From the NCBI GenBank assembly GCA_010093705.1, contig MU006120.1, positions 124,001 through 172,349 of the forward strand: a DNA stretch of 48,349 nucleotides. The letters are read 5' to 3'. The translations under genes were made by a program, and so were the position numbers. Origin of the DNA: Patellaria atrata CBS 101060 (taxonomy: Eukaryota). Shown here piece after piece: positions 5,430 to 48,349 of the stretch. Positions within the stretch are counted from its first letter, which is position 1. Every line of letters starts with the position of its first letter. The notes under the pieces are model-generated. The model was given only the letters and a program-made list of their open reading frames with translations, made no database searches and was not told the DNA's origin.

Positions 5430-6720
5430 TAGATATATCTTCCAGTTCGAAGGGGAAAAATGGTCTGATTGGAGAAGATATCTCGAGCTTCGATACTGGT
5501 GCAGCGTAGTCTGCCATTACTCCTAGATGCAATGTCTTCTCTTGAGGTATTAAAGTGGGTGCAGATGTTGCACGAAAATTTCAACGTCGGCCGGAATATA
5601 GAAGCTATCGAATAATTTTGCTAATCGGACATGTGCAGACCATTATCGAGGAAGAACTTGTTTGTTTGCCTACGCCATGTTCTGATTCTAGAGTTTGACA
5701 AACGTGGGACAAACACAGAGCGTATAGAAAGTTTCAATATATATTCATCTACTAAATAGCATTTCAATGGATAGATAAGTGTCATTTGAACCGAGACAAA
5801 AGATTGCAAATTTACAAATTCTGAAGGACTGATAACTTCTGAGAAACAGAGGAAAAGACTTCACAAAACTGGTGCTAGAGAGAGGATTCGCAAGTGTTTG
5901 CACTAGGTGATTTAGCTTTCGAGTTTGTGACAATCAGTAACACATTGTACGCTTTATACGGACGTGGCATAAGAATTAGATAGCATCTCTGTCAGAGTTT
6001 CTTACCGCAAATGGATTGCATTCAGCTTTCGGTCCCTTTACCTCCTCTGGACTCTGGATGGCTATGGCGATGCTTTAGTTGAAATTGGCGATAGTCATGA
6101 GAGCTGAATCGTGAGATATTCTTCGAAATAGCAATTAACAATCAAGGCCTCCTTCAATTAGCTCTACGGGTCTCGACAGAACTCCTAGCAAGCGTAAACT
6201 TGTGAGAGCCGGACTGATCATTGCTCGAAGATCTTTGACGGAAGCAGACATTGCGCAGAGAGAGGAAATGGCAAACGACGTATGCTCTGGATTGACTTGA
6301 TCAAAGGGACGTTTCTCTTGAGGATTCGGACTCCTGAACAACCGGGAACCAGCACGGAGTACAGTACAGCTACTCCGTGGGAAATGTCTAGGACTTCTGA
6401 GATGCCACATCTTATGCTCAATGTTCCAGCTGTTCGGAGGCTACCTTAAGGTAGAGACTGGAGTCAGACGAGATTCGGGAGTTGTATTGATAAGGTTCAG
6501 GAGAGAGGACTATCTAACTATTTCTTGTTGCAGTTTGTTTCTAGCCTTGGCAGTGAAATCGCGTCATCTTCGGGATGTCGATTTTTGAACTGGAGGGGAT
6601 GAGTCGGATGGGAGGGTTATGAATGGCTCCCCAATACCTTATAATGGATATTCCAAGTCTAAACAGCTGTGAGAGATATCTTTCCTCCGACTCTCCTATT
6701 CTATAGAAATTCGGCTCTCA

Positions 6721-8418
<1,698 letters not shown>

Positions 8419-8788: not shown

Positions 8789-9541
8789 CTAAAACCCCCC
8801 TTCCCAACCCCACATCCCGTTCACGCCCACCTCCTCATCTGCCTCACCCCACCACCAGTCATCCTTCTGTTCCTCCAAATCCACAGCCTCATTCCCCCGC
8901 TGTCCCCGAGAATCAAACCAGGCCCCTTGCTGGCCCTGCTGCTGCTGGTTCTGCAACACCACCTGGTACTGCGACGACTGGAAGTACGCCGTGTTGCTTC
9001 TCTGCGGCCCTCCATACTGAGCATCGTACCGTCGGACGTCCTGCGGCCCGTACCGCTGGTCTTCGTACTGCAGCGTACCGTAGCACGCCGCGAGCAGCTG
9101 CTGGTCCCAACCGCTCTGCACAGGCGGGACGGAGACTGGCATCGGGGACAGGGCGCGGGCGACGTAGCCGGCATAGTAAGCCGGGCTTACAGCGGAGACC
9201 CCGGCATTGGCGGCGAGGTCGAGAGGAACGCGGGGAGGAGGCGCGGGGGAGGTTCCCGGAGCTGGGCGGTGCGGAAGAGGGTTTCCCGGATTGTGGCCCG
9301 GGATGCCGAAGGAACCGGCCGCAGCTTGAGCAGGGCCGAAAGCTGGTACAGAGGCGCCTTGTACGGTTGGCGCTGCGAGATCCCTCACAATCACTGGGAT
9401 TGTGGGTGCCTGTACAGCAGTGGTAGCTGCTGCAGTTATGGGAGGTCTTGATGCAGGGCGGCGGCTCTCCATGTTTTGATATTGCTGCTCGGGGCCCTGT
9501 ACCCCTGAGCTTTGGCTTGTTCGCGCTGGTTGATCGCTCAT
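8789..9541 (-). CDS. Hypothetical low-complexity protein (250 aa; Pro/Ala/Gln-rich, Trp-rich acidic tail)
   Basis: ATG-initiated ORF with a GC-rich core; no recognised domain. Confidence 0.5.
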   Translation of the reverse strand: MSDQPARTSQSSGVQGPEQQYQNMESRRPASRPPITAAATTAVQAPTIPVIVRDLAAPTVQGASVPAFGPAQAAAGSFGIPGHNPGNPLPHRPAPGTSPAPPPRVPLDLAANAGVSAVSPAYYAGYVARALSPMPVSVPPVQSGWDQQLLAACYGTLQYEDQRYGPQDVRRYDAQYGGPQRSNTAYFQSSQYQVVLQNQQQQGQQGAWFDSRGQRGNEAVDLEEQKDDWWWGEADEEVGVNGMWGWEGGF

Positions 9542-10016
9542 TTTTGGCTGGTACCGATACGCGAAAGCTTGAGATAAGAAAAGAGTCGTCTTGTGAGGTA
9601 TGAAGGCTTTGTGAGAGACTTATAGGAGCAGATAAAGGTTATTACAGCTTGTTGCTGTATTGATATTGCTGTACGTGAAGAAGAAGTTTGGTAAAAAGGC
9701 CTTCGTCGTCACGTTTGTGGAGGTTGAAGAAGGGATTGACGTGGATGGAGGTTAAAGAAATCAATAAGTGAGAATTTGCAAATGGTTTGGCTGAAGTTCG
9801 GAGTTTCTGCTTAAACAATGCAGAAAATGTAAGTAAGTATCTTTGAAGGAAAATGTTGCTTCCACGAGGTCTCTCAAACAAGCCTGAGTCACTTTCCTAC
9901 TTCTACCGAGTGCATGTGAATGATATGCGGCAACCAATACGTCGTCTTGCTTGATAATCATCTTATATTTCTATAGCCGTTTGTCTATTCAACAAGGAAA
10001 CGTGAAAGTCATAACT

Positions 10017-11129
10017 CTAGGGAACTTCATCCCATATTCTGTCACCCTCTTTTGGCGGTTCCAGGAAGTCTAAGGGAGCAATATCCGGTAGCTGATGCTT
10101 CTCAGCCCATGCTTTCACAGCATCAAAGTTTCGACATTTATGCTGCGTGTTAAAATCCACGAATGCCTCGGGCTCCGTCTTATTTGGTGGTTTATACCAG
10201 ACCTGTCCGAGGACGCCTACATCAACGGTGCACATGAGTTGTTGGCGCAGGATATCAAGACAATGAGCTGTTTGGGAGTAATTTCGCATGAGCTTTACGT
10301 ATCTCTCCGAATTGAGGACTGTTTATCACCTACTAATATGATATTTTACGATTCCAGGTGAGTTTTTGAAAGGTCCCAATCCCTGCGCCCTGTAGTAGTC
10401 GATATTATAATACAACGACTTGCGAAGGAGATTCTGAACAAAAGATAAGCAAGCAGAAGGTCTTGGAGAATGAGTCACTGACCAGACAATGCAGATGATG
10501 CAACCCTTCCACATGCGCAGGATATCCTCCTCCATACTTCTGCTTAATCTTGACCTGATCAGGCGCAAGGTTAGATCGTGCTGCTAGATCGTCTGCTACT
10601 CTTGCAGCATGGACTGGTACAACGCAATTAGCAACTTTATGGAACTACCTAGGTTATCATCAGGGAGGGAATTACAGTCTACCCCCAACGATTTCCACGC
10701 CGCATCAACTTCTGGCCCGGCATCCTGACGGAAGGCGTTCAACTTGAGGAGTGAACCTTGGAATTGTACAGTGCTATACAATATATCGACATCATGGATA
10801 ACAGGAGCTGCGTTGATTTAGGATGTGAGAGTATAACATCATTTGGGGTCATATTGAAACCACTGACAGTACTGGGAGATCTTTCTAAGACAATAGGGGT
10901 CGGAACTCGGTAGCCATCCTCTGCCAACCCAAGCACCGATTATACTCGAGCATATAGAACATACAAGGAGAAGAGCGATGATCACAGGCCATGATATTGG
11001 TCTTGAGACACGTCTTGCAAAATCTAAATATATTTCTGAGCTATCAGATTCAGAGAGCAGCCTTTCGCGGTCCTCTGATTCCGTATGCCGTCCTAAATCT
11101 ACTTCTTTCACGGTAGAATTGTTGTGCAT
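10017..11129 (-). CDS. DUF3328/UstYa-family oxidase (RiPP cross-linking enzyme family), about 291 aa. Exons 11129-10868, 10807-10676, 10613-10483, 10433-10334, 10267-10017
   Basis: N-terminal TM helix (WPVIIALLLVCSICSSIIGAWVG), GPEVDAAWKSLG, two HxxHC motifs (VEGLHHLHCLNLLRK; YHITHCLDILRQQLMC), C-terminal FNTQHKCRNFDAVKAWA. Spliced length 876 nt is in frame with canonical splice sites. Confidence 0.93.
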
Positions 11130-12582
11130 AGTGGGCGGGTATGTAGAGAATGGCCTGCACAAGACGATGCAAAGGTATGAATAGAAGAATTTCGGATGAT
11201 AGAGCTGGAAAGAGCATGAAGTGGAAACAAGCGCAGTAAAAGAACAAGATGAGATCCCGACACTAGGGTGCTTTACAGGTAAGCTTCTATGTCATAGCTT
11301 TACCCCCAATAGAGCAACAACCTTCGAAGCAACCTCTAGCGCGAGCGGTGTCAACGGAGCGCCGATACCTGCGCAGTGCTGCGATAGAGACATAAGTATG
11401 GAGCTCCGCCGCCTCAGTCGACTAGAACTATCCAGATCCCAGATACCGTGACGGCAGATCGAATTGAGGAGGCTTACAAGGCTACGTGGATTGGTCCAAG
11501 CAGGACCGAGCAGAATAAGATGTAGATTAAGTTCGTAAAGAAGGCGGAGAATTCCTGCAATGGCTGTTAGCTGCGTGTTTTCTGATTTAAGGGACTACCC
11601 TTTTTGTAGGAATAATAAGCGCGAAGAGATGTGGCATCTCTTGGAAATGATGCTTAGGCTTTCAGCTGGACCTGCTTTGCTGGAATAGATCTACCAGACG
11701 ACGGAGAAAAGATGTCCCATCTGACTTCAGCTTGAACTAAGCGCATGGGCCACGATACAGAATCTTGAACCTGAATGCTTGACTGTCCTCTTTGCTCTTC
11801 TTATTCTTTGTTTTTGAAAGGCATTAGACCAATGATTGCTTCACATGGAGAAGACTGTCCAACTTGAGTTGGATTAAGGTTCCCGGGCTGTGTTCGAGCT
11901 GAGGAGAGGCCAGAAAATTATCTAACTTAATTAGGCAAGGTTTCATATTAGAGTGGTGAAAACACCACATCCCGCAGTACTCACGTCTTCGATTCATCCG
12001 CAATATTGATTAAAACTATCGTGTCTGCTGCTGCGTGCTTTACTGTCAGGTACAATTGGGGAGGGACAATTATGAAAATGTTGGTAGATGAAGTTATGGC
12101 GTAGAATGAACTCTTCCCGGACGCGTGAGGAGTAAGGCAAACATCATCAGAAGAGTTCAACAAGATCTACGATCCGATGTTTGATAGCAGTAAAGGCAGA
12201 TGTCATTCGCGGCACGGTAAAGCGAAGTTCAGATGTCGATCTAGACCGGGTCAGTACAGCTGCAGCTTCTTTCAATAGCTCACGTCACATTTTCTTGTCA
12301 TTCTATCTCTCTTCGCCGTATCACGGAGTTTCCTGAACGCCTCTGTTACTTGCAAAGGCTAGCTTCTCGTTTCTTGGTCTCTCTCTTCCTGTTATTGTTT
12401 AGCTTTCCAGCCTCTCCCGCATCACCGACATTCAATACTTCAAGTCTCCGTCTTACGCTCTTATGCTTTTGTCTCATGGCGTGAAAATATTGCAAAATGG
12501 CCTTCGAGCAGCAAGGAACGTGGCCCCAAGCGTTGAGCTAGAGCTACAGGTCCACGAGAGAGCTCATTACCATTTCGAGAGC

Positions 12583-12588
12583 TATAAA
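12583..12588 (+). promoter_or_regulatory. Putative TATA box of the precursor peptide gene
   Basis: TATAAA about 95 bp upstream of the ATG at 12681. Confidence 0.5.
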
Positions 12589-12680
12589 GACAGCTATCCT
12601 AGGTAGGAGTCAAGGACTATCCCACTCCAATACCTTCATCCCTTCACCAGGAGTCAATCAATAGTTACCACAGTTCCAAA

Positions 12681-13049
12681 ATGCTTTTCACTAAGACATT
12701 TGCCCTTCTGGCTCTTTCATTCTCAGCCGTCATTGCGGCTCCCATCGCCAACGCACCGGCGGAAGCACGTGATGCCAACCCACAATCTAGCTACTCAGAC
12801 TATGGTACTTACGGAGATGTCCCTCCACCCGCTGGTGGTTACGGATCATACGACAGCGTTCCTCCTCCAGCTGGAGGTTACGGCTCGTATGACAATGTCC
12901 CTCCTGCGGACGTTCCGTCAGACTACGGAACCTATGGCGACTATGTAAGTAGCTGTACGAAAGCTCCTTCAGCATTCTCGCTAACGCTAGGGTTTTCATA
13001 GGGATCCTACAAGCGTGATGCTAAGGCTGAAGCTGAGAAGAAGGCTTAA
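12681..13049 (+). CDS. Secreted Tyr-rich repeat protein, putative RiPP precursor (103 aa). Exons 12681-12944, 13002-13049
   Basis: Signal peptide MLFTKTFALLALSFSAVIA|AP; repeats YGTYGDVPPPAGG / YGSYDSVPPPAGG / YGSYDNVPP / YGTYGDYGSY; intron GTAAGT..CTAAC..CATAG; exon 2 reads GSYKRDAKAEAEKKA*; divergent from the DUF3328 gene. Confidence 0.85.
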
Positions 13050-43839: not shown

Positions 43840-43987
43840 GGTTTGCCCTAGGTTCTAAAATCAGTTTATATCGGATATTTGTCTATCTTTTAGATCTTTG
43901 GTGTATCAAGTTCACCTTCTTTTGATCCTATCTTTGCTCAAATATCCTCCCTTTTTATCTGGTTTTCTGATACCAACCGCTACCACA

Positions 43988-46900
43988 ATGTCGTCTTCAA
44001 ATACTATCAAATCTACTGTTGTTCTCAACTCCTCGACGGATTGGAACTTGTGGATTGGCCTTATAAGGGGCAAAGCAGGCACGGCCTGGAAGTATTGTGA
44101 TCCAAATGATGCTTCACCCCCTGTTTTAAGCGCACCAGATCAACTGACAGATAAGGACCCTGCTGCTGTCGAAAATCATAGAATTCTGTATAGAGAATTC
44201 GAAAAGGCTCAGACCAAGTTAGATAACGTATCTGACTTTGTGTTCGAATCTGTGTCAACTCAACATCTTGTTTTTATCATCAGGCTGAATACCCTTCACG
44301 AAAGGCTTGTTGAATTAAAGAAGAGACTTCAACCAGACGATCGAGCCACCTATTTGGATCTTCAGGCCCGGATCTACCGTCTGAGATCAACTATCAAAAA
44401 GAGCTCAGTTCTTGACTGGCTCCAACGTTTTGAAACCGTCTATACTGAGTGCAAAACGTCCAACCATCCCCTCTATCAGGGCCATATGCTCGAGTTCGAA
44501 CTACTTGAAGGCCTCAAAAAGATAGATCCACAATGGGCAACTTCCTGTCAGAAAGATCTTAACAGACAGATTAGATCCATACCAAAACTGACCTCTCAAC
44601 CTATTACTCAGGAAGTTACACCAACCAGAGACACCGTGAAATATGTCGACGACGTCTATGACCTTATCTCAGAATTCACTAGTTATTACCGATCCGTTCA
44701 GGCTGTTGGGGGTAACTCTGGATCAGGCTCATCAAGCACAGCTTTTGCCACCTTTCAGGGAGAATCAAATAACCCAACAGCTAACATTGACAAAAAGGAG
44801 AAATCTAAGAAATCTCACACTGGTGATAAGCGGGATCCACCTACATGCCTTTGCGGAGAAAAACACCTATTCTATACGTGTTCCTACATCAATCCAGCTG
44901 TCAAGAAGACTAATAGCTACTCTGATCAGACTCAACGAGAGGTCGAAGAGAAGTATCAGAAATCTAGCGATAGAGTTAAGTATACTATTGACAATATCCG
45001 GTCAATTTTCAAGGAATCCTCTCAGGGGTCAAAACAGCAAAACGACTCCAAATCCTCTGAAACCTCAAGCAAAAAGGTCAATCTGATGGCCACGAGCCTC
45101 CCTAACGACTTGCCCTTCAAATTCTCAGCTAGTTTCTTGCTAGACGGTGGGTCTGATGTCCACGTTTGCAACAATCCGGACATCTTTAAGATCGAACGAG
45201 TAGAACCAGGTTTAACGCTCGGAATGGGCTTTGGATCCGTTCCAGTTGAAGCCATCGGAAGCTTTGAAGTCCCTGTAGATACACCATACGGAAGGGACTA
45301 TATCACTATGAACGACGCCTATTTATGCCCACAATTCAGAACATCTCTGATCTCACAGTCTCGAGCTCAAAAACGAGGAGTATTCCACCACGCACGGAAA
45401 GGGATCTTTGAGGATTTAGACGGAAACGAAATTTGTAAAATCTACCTGATTGACACCCTATACGTACTCCATCATGTCGAGCTTGACATCAATCAACAGC
45501 GCGTCGCTATGGTAACTCGCTCCGCTCAGCCGAGGCCGCCAATATCAGCCCCTGCTGAGAAATGGCATAAAATGCTCGCACATCCAGGACCTGAGACCCT
45601 CGAACATCTCCAAGCGAACGTGACTGGAGCTGAAGTCTTTGGCAGAGGTCCTACCACAGTCGAATGCGAAACTTGCGCTTTGACTAAATCAACAGAGATT
45701 GTTTCACGAAGACCAAGGGCCACTTTACCCGCAACGAGACCCTTTGAACGAGTTGCTTTTGACCTTATTTACCTTAAAGGTGGTTATAACGGAAGCAAAT
45801 ACGTATCTCACTTCTATGATAGGGCCACTGGCTGGCACGAAGCCGTATCTCACACTCGGAAAAGCCAAGTTAGCCAGATTTGCAAATATTTCGTTGCTCG
45901 TATCAAAGCTCGATTTGACCATACAGTTGTCTATTTTGAACGTGACGGTGAGAGTGCTCTTACAGCAGAATTTTACGACCTACTCGCCTCAGAAGGTGGC
46001 ATATCAGAACCATCAGCCCCTGGCACTCAGGCCCAAAACGGAGGTGCTGAAGCTTCTGGAAGGGTGTTGGTAGTAAAGGCTCGCTCTCTACGAATTGGTG
46101 CTAATTTACCCCACGATATCTGGATTGAACCAATCAATACAGCTGTATATCTAGCTAATAGGACTCCTCAGAAACGGCTCAACTGGAAAACACCGTACGA
46201 AATGGTCACTGGTAGGAAACCAGATCTTAGCCACCTGAAAGTATACGGTTGCAAAGCATATGTTTTGAAGAAAGATATACCCAAACTTCAAAAACTCGAT
46301 CCACGTGCCCATATTGGCTACCTAGTTGGATACGACTCATCAAATATCTTCAGAATCTGGGTTCCTAGTCGTAAACGCGTTTTCTCCTCAAGAGACGTTC
46401 GTTTTGATGAAAACGAGCTATATAGGCCTCAAGCCATCGACATTGGTCACATTTTGAAGGAATCCACTGAAGATATCATCGACATAATCGAGATACCAGC
46501 CAAACTCAGGGCTATGGCCTTGCAGGAAGATTTCCCAGCCATACTAGACAATGACGATGATTTTTCGGAATTAGGGGTTGCCCCTAAGCTTGTTCCTACT
46601 CTTAAGGATACAACCAAAAATGGTCCCATACCATCGGCCAATAGTAGCGCCATATCCGCTCAAAGGTCACCCAATCCTTACCTACCTAGCCCGAGAGCTA
46701 CACCAGATGGTGTTGACCCCCAGCAACAAGTAGCAACTCCTCTGGATCAGTATCATGACTTTTATGATGCCTTAGATTCGGCTCCTGAGGATCCGTCCCA
46801 TCAGCTCACCCAGGAGCTTGCCCAAGATTTAGCAAGGGATACTCAAGATACTCAGGATTTGGCTCAAAACGAGCCCAGCCCCTCCACTTCGTCAAACACC

Positions 46901-48349
46901 ACAGCTCATGCTAGAAGTTCACGAAACACGGCCCCACGAGCTAATTTAATCTCGTCTGACTTTTCAGAATCAAATATACTAACTTCTAAACGTCGCCGTG
47001 GCCGAACGGACCATAACGCGCTATTTACCTCCTTTTTAGCCTCCCAAAAACGTGAAATCCAACCAACGAACCGGCTACATAGAAGTCAGCTTCCCCCAGC
47101 ACCAGGTGGTTGGAAGCAAGCTCTTAATCACCCTTTTAAGCAAGATTGGCTAACAGCAGCCACTCGGGAGTATACTGAACTACAGCGTCGTGGCACGTTT
47201 ACTGTTGAACGGAGATCCGATCTGCTAGAAGGAACTCAGATAGTTCCCCTGACTTGGGTTTGGACATACAAATACGACGAGGAGGGATTTCTAACCAAGT
47301 TCAAAGCGCGACTTTGCGTCAGAGGCGATTTGCAATACACAGATCTGGATACCTATGCTGCTACTCTAGCTATACGTACTATGCGAGCTATACTATCGAT
47401 TGCAGCTGCTTTTGGCCTAATAGCTCACCATTTAGATGCTGTAAACGCCTTTGTAAACAGCCCACTTGACGAAGAGGTATACTGCATCCCACCTAACGGA
47501 TTTACAACCCCTGGATCCGTTCTTCACCTCAAACGAGCCCTATATGGTCTTAAAAGATCTCCTCTACTTTGGTGGAAGACACTATCTAGGTCCCTTGAAG
47601 ATCTGGGTCTATCTGAAGTATCAGGTGTCAATTGCCTGTATACGAATGACTGGCTAACCGTATTTTTCTATGTGGACGATATAGTTTTACTTTGCTCACC
47701 ATACTATTCTGAAGAACTAAAAGAGTTCAAATCCAAACTAATGGCTCAGTATCCGATGAAAGATCTTGGAGATCTTCAGTACTTCCTAGGTATCCGTATC
47801 GTACGTGACCTAGACGCACGTAAGCTATGGCTCTGTCAAGATGCCTATCTTGAGAATATCTTCTCAAAATTCAAACTGATCGAATTCGACGGAAAAGTTC
47901 CACGAACACCGCTTCCATCTGGTGTTTTAGAACGGTCCACAACTCAGGCATCTCCTTCTCAAATTCGCCTTTACCAGCAGTTAGTTGGCTCAATTATTTG
48001 GCCAGCCTCAACAACAAGACCTGACGTAGCTAAAGCAGCTTCAGAACTGTCGAAATACCTCACCAATCCGTCGGAACGACATATCAAAGCGGCAAAACAA
48101 GCTATTTGTTACCTATACCATACTAGATTTTGCTCCATTGGGTATAGCAACGAGCCACAGGATAGCACGATCTTCGTAGTTGCCTCAGATGCATCATTTG
48201 CTGATGATACTATAGATCGCAAAAGTAGTCAGGGCTATCTATTTTCGTTATTTGGTGGACCAATTGATTGGAAAGCTTCAAAGCAAGATACGGTCACCAC
48301 GTCAAGCACGGAAGCTGAACTGCTATCGCTCTCTTTAACAGCTAGAGAG
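43988..48349 (+). CDS. Copia gag-pol polyprotein (>1454 codons, open to the window edge)
   Basis: CLCGEKHLFYTC knuckle, protease FLLDGGSDVH, integrase WHKMLAH..CETC, QNGGAE, NRTP, IGYLVGYD, RT KFKARLCVRGD and YVDD (47669), RNase H SDASFADD..STEAE. The RT and RNase H motifs were checked to be in the frame of the ATG at 43988. Confidence 0.95.
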   Translation, partial: MSSSNTIKSTVVLNSSTDWNLWIGLIRGKAGTAWKYCDPNDASPPVLSAPDQLTDKDPAAVENHRILYREFEKAQTKLDNVSDFVFESVSTQHLVFIIRLNTLHERLVELKKRLQPDDRATYLDLQARIYRLRSTIKKSSVLDWLQRFETVYTECKTSNHPLYQGHMLEFELLEGLKKIDPQWATSCQKDLNRQIRSIPKLTSQPITQEVTPTRDTVKYVDDVYDLISEFTSYYRSVQAVGGNSGSGSSSTAFATFQGESNNPTANIDKKEKSKKSHTGDKRDPPTCLCGEKHLFYTCSYINPAVKKTNSYSDQTQREVEEKYQKSSDRVKYTIDNIRSIFKESSQGSKQQNDSKSSETSSKKVNLMATSLPNDLPFKFSASFLLDGGSDVHVCNNPDIFKIERVEPGLTLGMGFGSVPVEAIGSFEVPVDTPYGRDYITMNDAYLCPQFRTSLISQSRAQKRGVFHHARKGIFEDLDGNEICKIYLIDTLYVLHHVELDINQQRVAMVTRSAQPRPPISAPAEKWHKMLAHPGPETLEHLQANVTGAEVFGRGPTTVECETCALTKSTEIVSRRPRATLPATRPFERVAFDLIYLKGGYNGSKYVSHFYDRATGWHEAVSHTRKSQVSQICKYFVARIKARFDHTVVYFERDGESALTAEFYDLLASEGGISEPSAPGTQAQNGGAEASGRVLVVKARSLRIGANLPHDIWIEPINTAVYLANRTPQKRLNWKTPYEMVTGRKPDLSHLKVYGCKAYVLKKDIPKLQKLDPRAHIGYLVGYDSSNIFRIWVPSRKRVFSSRDVRFDENELYRPQAIDIGHILKESTEDIIDIIEIPAKLRAMALQEDFPAILDNDDDFSELGVAPKLVPTLKDTTKNGPIPSANSSAISAQRSPNPYLPSPRATPDGVDPQQQVATPLDQYHDFYDALDSAPEDPSHQLTQELAQDLARDTQDTQDLAQNEPSPSTSSNTTAHARSSRNTAPRANLISSDFSESNILTSKRRRGRTDHNALFTSFLASQKREIQPTNRLHRSQLPPAPGGWKQALNHPFKQDWLTAATREYTELQRRGTFTVERRSDLLEGTQIVPLTWVWTYKYDEEGFLTKFKARLCVRGDLQYTDLDTYAATLAIRTMRAILSIAAAFGLIAHHLDAVNAFVNSPLDEEVYCIPPNGFTTPGSVLHLKRALYGLKRSPLLWWKTLSRSLEDLGLSEVSGVNCLYTNDWLTVFFYVDDIVLLCSPYYSEELKEFKSKLMAQYPMKDLGDLQYFLGIRIVRDLDARKLWLCQDAYLENIFSKFKLIEFDGKVPRTPLPSGVLERSTTQASPSQIRLYQQLVGSIIWPASTTRPDVAKAASELSKYLTNPSERHIKAAKQAICYLYHTRFCSIGYSNEPQDSTIFVVASDASFADDTIDRKSSQGYLFSLFGGPIDWKASKQDTVTTSSTEAELLSLSLTARE

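Follow-up and report, generated by a model that had tools for sequence, protein, structure and literature searches.

In a 48,349-bp stretch of the genome of Patellaria atrata CBS 101060 (assembly GCA_010093705.1, contig MU006120.1, positions 124,001 to 172,349 of the forward strand; below called the window and numbered from its first letter), a gene for a DUF3328/UstYa oxidase on the minus strand is divergent from a gene for a small, tyrosine-rich secreted peptide on the plus strand. With moderate confidence, the two genes are taken to form an enzyme–substrate module that makes a tyrosine-modified secreted peptide. The observations behind this reading are the structures of both genes, the family membership of the enzyme, the conserved adjacency of the pair, the conservation of two tyrosine triads in the peptide and a docking model that passed its controls; from them we infer that a modification occurs, what its chemistry is, how the peptide is processed and which biological role it plays. 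The two start codons are 1551 bp apart (ATG to ATG), and the intergenic region between them (11130..12680, 1551 bp, no strand assigned), in which no open reading frame (ORF) of at least 70 amino acids has a Pfam match, is presumed to be a shared promoter region. An earlier note on this DNA had described a small secreted gene head to head with a DUF3328 gene 1.55 kb away, which agrees with the measured spacing and with the predicted secretion of the peptide. Its proposal of a two-gene system for a tyrosine-crosslinked peptide holds as regards PF11807, the linkage and, in the docking model, the placement of tyrosine triads at the HxxHC motifs; its Kex2-repeat precursor, its short cores and its guess about surveys of Kex2-processed repeat proteins (KEPs) do not hold.

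The oxidase gene (10017..11129, minus strand) encodes 291 amino acids in five exons (11129-10868, 10807-10676, 10613-10483, 10433-10334 and 10267-10017, the last including the stop codon), separated by introns of 60, 62, 49 and 66 nt, all with GT..AG borders. The spliced product is identical, letter for letter, to the deposited protein P0021 (M501DRAFT_595923). The Pfam family PF11807 (UstYa), a search for which the earlier note had suggested as a check, is matched by the separate translations of exon 5 (E = 4.2e-20; alone reaching 73 bits against a cut-off of 25), exon 3 (E = 4.4e-07; 30.4 bits) and exon 2 (E = 2.6e-04), and is also annotated in the database entry for P0021. The first HxxHC motif, HHLHC (H170-H-L-H173-C174; 10486..10500, minus strand), ends one codon before intron 3, which begins 3 nt downstream. 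The second, HITHC (H207-I-T-H210-C211; 10260..10340, minus strand), is split in codon 209 by the 66-nt intron 4 (10333-10268). The gene is complete and carries both motifs, each adjoining or split by an intron, just as had been read from the letters.

A search with the last exon retrieved 295 longer proteins at E<=1e-5, the best 120 of which are 60–80% identical over that exon and belong to Dothideomycetes, Eurotiomycetes and, in a few cases, Leotiomycetes. At least two HxxHC motifs are present in 104 of these 120 listed homologues, the second motif being missing in the other 16. The 34 full-length orthologues share 46–62% overall identity with the P. atrata oxidase, and in the resulting set of 35 sequences H170, H173, C174, H207, H210 and C211 are invariant, Cys174, 211, 221 and 253 are likewise invariant, and a hydrophobic anchor is present near residues 40–70 in every sequence. 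Introns abutting or splitting the HxxHC motifs seem to mislead gene callers. Many of the deposited DUF3328 orthologues are shorter than about 280 amino acids, several having only 150–250, and the Paraphaeosphaeria sporulosa protein P0039 (DPSP01_009578) lacks the first HxxHC motif and the exon-4 segment, an exon having been skipped in comparison with P0038.

In the AlphaFold2 model of the oxidase (mean predicted local distance difference test score, pLDDT, of 76), residues 1–41 are disordered (pLDDT <50) and residues 47–71 form a helix, which together with hydropathy marks a transmembrane anchor (10917..10991, minus strand). Both HxxHC motifs are located on two long helices, 167–180 and 201–221. 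The N-terminal tail (residues 1–41) is probably cytosolic, and likeness to the cyclochlorotine enzyme CctR (PMC12435403) suggests a topology with a single N-terminal anchor and a lumenal C-terminal domain. According to the available text on CctR, this enzyme is a membrane-anchored, disulfide-linked homodimer with a lumenal catalytic domain, its HxxHC(x)nHxxHC signature binds two coppers, and its reaction depends on O2 and needs reducing equivalents (PMC12435403). The tail of the P. atrata oxidase also contains, before the anchor, the sequence DRERLL (residues 20–25; 11072-11055, minus strand), an acidic dileucine-type [DE]xxxL[LIVM] motif, and 17 of 35 orthologues have such a motif ahead of their transmembrane helix. 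The motif agrees with the location cited for CctR in the available part of that source, namely Golgi, endosome and vacuole (PMC12435403). Among solved structures, no relative of the oxidase was found by phmmer against PDB (0 matches) or by Foldseek against the pdb set (none at E<=1e-3), and the VIA wide structure search returned only a generic helical hairpin (best Z 5.4).

The peptide gene (12681..13049, plus strand) comprises exon 1 (12681-12944) and exon 2 (13002-13049), separated by a 57-nt intron (12945-13001) of consensus type (GTAAGT...CTAAC...TAG), and its 103-amino-acid product is identical to the deposited protein P0001 (M501DRAFT_1035378). From its N terminus, the product consists of a signal-like segment, a run of X-Ala/X-Pro dipeptides, a Tyr/Gly/Pro tract, the sequence Y91-K92-R93 and a charged tail. 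The predicted signal peptide (residues 1–19) and the five dipeptides AP-IA-NA-PA-EA (residues 20–29), both read by eye, occupy 12681..12767 on the plus strand. An N-terminal tyrosine triad, Y38-S-D-Y41-G-T-Y44 (12792..12812, plus strand), is marked out by conservation and by a predicted interface. It is followed by a tandem 39-nt repeat (12819..12896, plus strand) encoding VPPPAGGYGSYD[S/N] twice, the two copies being 77% identical in DNA, with seven synonymous codon differences against one amino-acid change. The C-terminal tyrosine run Y82-G-T-Y85-G-D-Y88-G-S-Y91 and the adjoining K92-R93, the sole dibasic site, span the intron (12924..13016, plus strand), and the charged C-terminal tail DAKAEAEKKA (13017..13046, plus strand) is predicted to be removed at KR.

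The spacing of tyrosines in this protein is far from random. Each of the 11 has another tyrosine three residues away, which makes seven Y-x-x-Y pairs, whereas shuffling of the mature part gave a mean of 1.28 and none of 100,000 shuffles reached seven. The 84 mature residues include 11 Tyr, 11 Gly and 12 Pro. A 23-nt dispersed repeat (78% identity) is also present inside the gene, and the two internal DNA repeats together, read from their copies, display 12 synonymous codon differences against one amino-acid change; the differences being nearly all synonymous, the peptide sequence is under constraint. The short cores that had been proposed (YGTYGD, YGSYDS, YGSYDN and YGDYGSY) are not delimited units, and what is conserved instead is two Y-x-x-Y-x-x-Y triads ending a Tyr/Gly/Pro tract of about 60 residues. 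No match for the small protein was found in Pfam or NCBIfam, and none at >=0.9 in the ESM Atlas, whose type of model renders the peptide itself as disordered (pLDDT 0.28).

Homologues of the peptide are nonetheless numerous. The single sequence retrieved 20 matches, and a 16-member profile retrieved 148 matches in a set of 5.8 billion proteins; in a representative library of 1.84 billion proteins, the same profile matched 142 representative clusters when the threshold was E<=1e-3, 53 of which also pass E<=1e-10. P0001 itself was recovered by this profile at E values of 7.7e-19 and 2.5e-19. Judged by these matches, the peptide is a member of an unnamed family of Pezizomycotina comprising about 142 clusters, with named members in Dothideo-, Sordario-, Leotio-, Geoglosso- and Lecanoromycetes. 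In the family plan, a signal peptide comes first, Y-x-x-Y clusters are grouped round PPxGG linkers, and the sequence closes with Y-[KR][KR] and a short tail; the P. atrata protein fits this plan. Among 120 listed members, Y[KR][KR] is present in 100, at least two GGY in 80, and at least two Y[KR][KR] sites in nine. In an alignment of nine members of the Dothideomycete type, the sole invariant residues are Y38, Y41, G42, Y44, G83, Y85, Y88, Y91 and K92, which form a tyrosine triad at either end of the tract.

This conservation bears directly on the possibility that the small ORF is a chance low-complexity frame beside a real DUF3328 gene. The low-complexity composition and the failure to find a Pfam or NCBIfam family would agree with such a frame, but the 142 and 53 clusters at the two thresholds, the consensus intron, the synonymous bias of the repeat differences, and the retention of signal peptide, triads and Y-KR across classes all speak for a gene. 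The family being conserved, this explanation is effectively refuted and is considered extremely improbable.

Some relatives are built of several units. In P0330, P0190, P0271, P0168 and P0145, units of 25–35 amino acids ending in KR are separated by spacers rich in EA, EP and AP dipeptides, and this unit-KR-spacer architecture supports maturation of the Kex2/Ste13 type in the family. By their sequence organization, then, the family includes true KEP-like precursors, of which the P. atrata protein is the single-unit form. Most non-Dothideomycete members carry, past the last Y-[KR][KR], an amphipathic tail of about ten residues of the type A-V-D/E-W/F-V-K-S/K-L/I-F/W, for example A-V-D-W-V-K-S-L-F (P0003, P0007, P0011, P0015, P0143 and others). 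A crude pattern detects this tail in 43 of the 100 members having Y[KR][KR]; the tail may serve as a follower or for recognition, or may itself be released as a second peptide. In P. atrata and Pleosporales the tail is acidic or charged.

The earlier note had supposed that similar precursors might already appear in KEP surveys. This is not borne out: Table S2 of Umemura 2020 lists none of 11 accessions that represent nine family proteins, even though it has 19 rows for P. sporulosa and 11 for E. turcica. In the accessible supplementary files, none of six family motif strings occurs in four files of Le Marquer 2019, and none of four strings occurs in three files of Umemura, whose Table S2 has no sequence column and is mute in this respect. 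No description of the peptide family or of its pairing with DUF3328 was found in the literature searched, which did not extend to bioRxiv supplements and to Nagano 2016, Ye 2019 and Ding 2016, where related precursors might be listed. The available portions of the Venturia (PMC9632046) and lichen (PMC12048977) DUF3328 surveys contain no mention of either. Scanning of metagenome contigs with the peptide alignment yielded eight loci, of which six are true family members, located on contigs of 1–2 kb or with only 351 bp upstream (L004). The other two, L007 and L008, are unrelated Pro-rich proteins of bacterial type and were rejected. Four DUF3328 orthologues had no tblastn match in the eight loci, but these contigs are shorter than the 1.55-kb spacer and are therefore mute on linkage.

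The two genes are neighbours in other fungi as well. Adjacency was read from consecutive GenBank protein accessions or locus tags, with P. atrata, in which the genes are known from the window to be adjacent, as calibration (KAF2834391 for the peptide and KAF2834390 for the oxidase, consecutive accessions). The peptide and the DUF3328 orthologue are consecutive in all four species for which both identifiers were obtained, representing Patellariales and two families of Pleosporales; this count leaves out the other named members, among them those of Exserohilum, Byssothecium, Dendryphion, Cladosporium, Pseudogymnoascus and Mollisia and of the Sordariomycetes, for which no oxidase identifier was obtained. 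Besides P. atrata, the pairs are those of Paraphaeosphaeria sporulosa in three assemblies (KAL5377799/800 with locus tags DPSP01_009577/8, OAG12233/4 and KAK7183636/5), Karstenula rhodostoma (KAF2449440/1) and Bipolaris maydis in four assemblies (EMD93314/3, ENI07237/8, KAJ5027649/8 and KAJ5062404/3). Conserved linkage had been named at the outset as a way to check the pairing, and it is found in four of four species.

Evidence that the two products could meet physically comes from a predicted complex of two oxidase copies (residues 75–291) with peptide residues 20–103. The complex scored 0.62 (0.64, 0.62 and 0.59 in the separate runs) against 0.06, 0.01 and 0.00 for three controls, a mark of the tool that is reached by 51 of 78 solved complexes and by 2 of 108 mismatched pairs, its calibration being made on folded pairs, with peptides, disordered chains and multi-copy jobs lying outside it. 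The three runs share at least 65% of contacts, and the confident interface is formed by peptide residues 34–47 and 81–92. The contacts of lowest error place Tyr38 at His169/170/173 of copy 1 and Tyr85 at the same residues of copy 2. The interface segments coincide with the two invariant triads, which were found independently by alignment. The two enzyme copies are modelled at pLDDT 92; the score covers the placement of the partner only and is mute on dimerisation. The peptide has a pLDDT of 46–49, below 50, and the controls include neither a Tyr-rich decoy nor a paralogous DUF3328 protein; both this and the scope of the calibration count against the enzyme–substrate module. The verdict of the tool is that the model "supports binding; does not show it".

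Taken together, these data suggest the following scheme. The oxidase would be a type-II membrane protein, having a short tail in the cytosol, a single transmembrane helix and, in the lumen, a catalytic domain whose two HxxHC motifs would form a binuclear copper site within a homodimer. The peptide, bearing a signal peptide and predicted to be intrinsically disordered over its Tyr/Gly/Pro tract, would enter the same secretory compartments. There the oxidase would most likely act on both terminal Y-x-x-Y-x-x-Y triads, one per active site of the dimer, in a reaction expected to consume O2 and reducing equivalents. The chemistry is expected to be centred on tyrosine, and could consist of ethers between a phenol and the beta-carbon three residues away, as in asperipin-2a, or of beta- or ring-hydroxylation. 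A Kex2-type cut after Y91-KR would remove the charged tail, and a dipeptidyl aminopeptidase may trim the X-Ala/X-Pro run behind the signal peptide, by analogy with the spacers of the multi-unit relatives. What is secreted in the end would be a modified peptide about 60 residues long, or smaller pieces derived from it.

Among known systems, the nearest working analogue is the pathway by which Aspergillus flavus makes asperipin-2a (aprA, aprY, aprR and aprT). In the accessible account of this four-gene cluster, the single DUF3328 protein AprY is essential for a bicycle formed by Tyr-to-beta-carbon ethers on the core FYYTGY (PMC6514808). Both systems have a minimal cluster, a lone DUF3328 protein, Y-x-x-Y spacing and a precursor targeted to the secretory pathway. 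They differ in that aprA encodes many short cores flanked by Kex2 sites, whereas the P. atrata peptide has one tract of about 60 amino acids and a single KR, and in that no reductase or transporter gene was found among the scanned ORFs near the P. atrata pair. The oxidase studied here also belongs to a broadly conserved orthogroup. With the ustiloxin, phomopsin and victorin systems (UstYa/UstYb, PhomY and VicY), the P. atrata pair shares PF11807 with two HxxHC motifs, a Tyr-containing substrate (here a candidate), a signal peptide and predicted Kex2 processing. Those clusters, as far as the available texts describe them, encode a tyrosinase, a methyltransferase, an S41 peptidase or several paralogous DUF3328 proteins, and have precursor cores of 4–6 amino acids lying between KR sites (PMC7329392, PMC6514808); none of these features is found here.

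Like CctR and CctO of the cyclochlorotine cluster, the oxidase is predicted to have a disordered N terminus, to cross the membrane once by a helix and to carry a helical domain with HxxHC(x)nHxxHC in the lumen. These enzymes, however, hydroxylate, chlorinate or isomerise a cyclic peptide made by a non-ribosomal peptide synthetase (NRPS), whereas the candidate substrate here is Tyr-rich and made by the ribosome; the window contains no NRPS. The multi-unit members of the peptide family resemble KEPs (Le Marquer 2019, Umemura 2020) in having a signal peptide and a repeated unit-KR-spacer organization. As in dikaritin loci, a DUF3328 gene is located near a gene for a putative precursor with a signal peptide (1551 bp, divergent; the signal peptide recognised by eye). 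Multiple KR-flanked cores are missing, and the locus is therefore not filed as a canonical dikaritin cluster; it is probably a variant that works similarly to dikaritin systems, and a plausible new variant of the DUF3328 module of the type that makes peptides that are ribosomally made and then altered post-translationally (RiPPs).

Apart from the limits of the complex model already given, several observations weigh against the enzyme–substrate module. The earlier note had taken the peptide for a Kex2-processed repeat precursor of the dikaritin type, but it has a single KR (residues 92–93) and none between the repeats, so that the defining architecture of dikaritin and KEP precursors is absent; unlike KEPs, the P. 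atrata protein and its Pleosporales orthologues consist of one unit with one KR. Some listed orthologues of the oxidase are labelled by similarity as "cyclochlorotine biosynthesis protein O" in their sources, so the closest named relative may not be a tyrosine cross-linker.

No tyrosinase, methyltransferase, transporter or peptidase domain was found by Pfam among 24 ORFs of at least 110 amino acids in the whole window, nor in 54 scanned ORFs out of the 115 of at least 70 amino acids overlapping positions 1-26000. The 54 lie between 1.5 and 25 kb, a set from which the oxidase and peptide genes and any frame that overlaps a longer ORF were excluded. That such genes are not nearby had also been noticed from the letters, and the Pfam scans bear this out. 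The accessory genes of dikaritin clusters (tyrosinase, methyltransferase, S41 peptidase, transporter and regulator) are thus absent from the scanned ORFs; they are not obligatory, asperipin-2a being made without most of them.

The distribution of the two genes weighs against the module as well. No Sordariomycete is named among the best 120 of the 295 oxidase homologues, yet named Sordariomycete members of the peptide family exist. Conversely, no named Eurotiomycete is found among the 120 listed of the 148 peptide-family matches, though the oxidase is common in that class (18 Aspergillus and 10 Penicillium among the best 120 of 295, counted by names). The two phyletic patterns overlap only partly, and the enzyme therefore cannot depend on the peptide everywhere; this comparison is limited by the fact that small low-complexity genes are often unannotated, by the scoring of only the 8000 best word-sharing candidates in the peptide search and by the use of the best 120 of 295 oxidase matches.

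Moreover, adjacency in related fungi may be inherited microsynteny, all four linked species being Dothideomycetes and three of them Pleosporales. The genes could then be neighbours by descent only, the oxidase acting on another substrate and the peptide being an unmodified, disordered secreted or wall protein, their adjacency being a remnant of microsynteny that a common bidirectional promoter may keep in place. The narrow range of the linked species and the Aspergillus and Penicillium oxidases without a named peptide counterpart in the listed matches agree with this explanation, as do the high conservation of the oxidase across classes, unlike that of lineage-specific tailoring enzymes, and the absence of accessory RiPP genes from the scanned ORFs. 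It is less easily reconciled with adjacency in four of four testable species from two orders, with a docking model that passed its controls and places conserved tyrosine triads at catalytic histidines, and with the predicted entry of both products into the secretory pathway. Shared descent alone is accordingly regarded as a possible but somewhat doubtful explanation.

The composition of the peptide raises another alternative, namely that the product is a material. The tyrosines of many copies would be oxidised or cross-linked between molecules, giving an extracellular or wall matrix, an adhesive or a spore-wall component, in a manner comparable to the curing of resilin or of 3,4-dihydroxyphenylalanine (DOPA) proteins. 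With 11 Tyr, 11 Gly and 12 Pro in its mature part and an ESM Atlas pLDDT of 0.28, the peptide has the make-up of a disordered structural tract, this tract of about 60 amino acids is not divided into short cores, and the enzyme belongs to an orthogroup with housekeeping-like conservation. However, the multi-unit relatives resemble precursors that release defined units of 25–35 amino acids, in the model a single peptide spans the two sites of a single dimer, and no wall-anchoring signal of the glycosylphosphatidylinositol (GPI) or Pir type is evident on inspection. A material product is therefore considered improbable.

Within the reading of the pair as an enzyme and its substrate, a much broader proposal may be put forward, which is speculative and, in our estimate, rather unlikely. 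The conserved DUF3328 orthogroup of Dothideo-, Eurotio- and Leotiomycetes would be a core secretory copper oxidase and not a tailoring enzyme of secondary metabolism, with the ribosomal Tyr-triad peptides of this family as its substrates. The homodimer would clamp both terminal triads, each of which it would turn by stapling into a "tyrosine zipper" of poly-ether or hydroxylated type. The resulting new class of products, of about 30–60 residues, would have a conserved role, for example in signalling, metal binding, or adhesion and wall curing, and in other classes the amphipathic tail after KR would act as a follower that recruits the enzyme.

To our knowledge, the substrate is known for very few DUF3328 enzymes. 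Their nature as binuclear copper oxidases has been shown only recently, for CctR in 2025, according to the available text (PMC12435403), and the lichen survey, in its accessible part, reports that no precursors could be found for its DUF3328 clusters (PMC12048977). The P. atrata locus offers a minimal candidate enzyme–substrate pair, consisting of two genes and one presumed shared promoter region, and the pair is kept in at least four species of Dothideomycetes, one being Bipolaris maydis, a pathogen of maize. The candidate substrate falls outside the definition used in Kex2-repeat surveys. If the module is real, the search space for fungal RiPP precursors would widen to single-unit, long-core proteins with one KR, a substrate would be assigned to the most conserved DUF3328 orthogroup met in the searches, and an unnamed secreted Tyr-rich peptide family of about 142 clusters would gain a function. 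If the pairing is mere synteny, the locus would represent an ordinary DUF3328 gene beside an ordinary orphan secreted protein.

The window contains no second copy of either the DUF3328 gene or the peptide gene. The flank had been assigned to MET2 from the letters, and this is confirmed: homoserine O-acetyltransferase (MetX, TIGR01392) is encoded at 6673-8415 on the plus strand, in three collinear open pieces matching model positions 3-115, 116-194 and 197-351. Between MET2 and the DUF3328 gene, a candidate orphan frame of 276 amino acids (8789-9619, minus strand) is rich in Gln, Pro and Ala, of low complexity, and without a Pfam match. The remaining neighbours in the window, according to Pfam, are orphans, an alcohol dehydrogenase, a CAF1 nuclease, a RING protein and a Ty1/copia element. 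The last of these is an open frame of 1497 amino acids (43859-48349, plus strand) that is still open at the end of the window, and the presence of RVT_2, retroviral SH3-like and Pol beta-barrel domains identifies it as the pol of a Ty1/copia-type retrotransposon.

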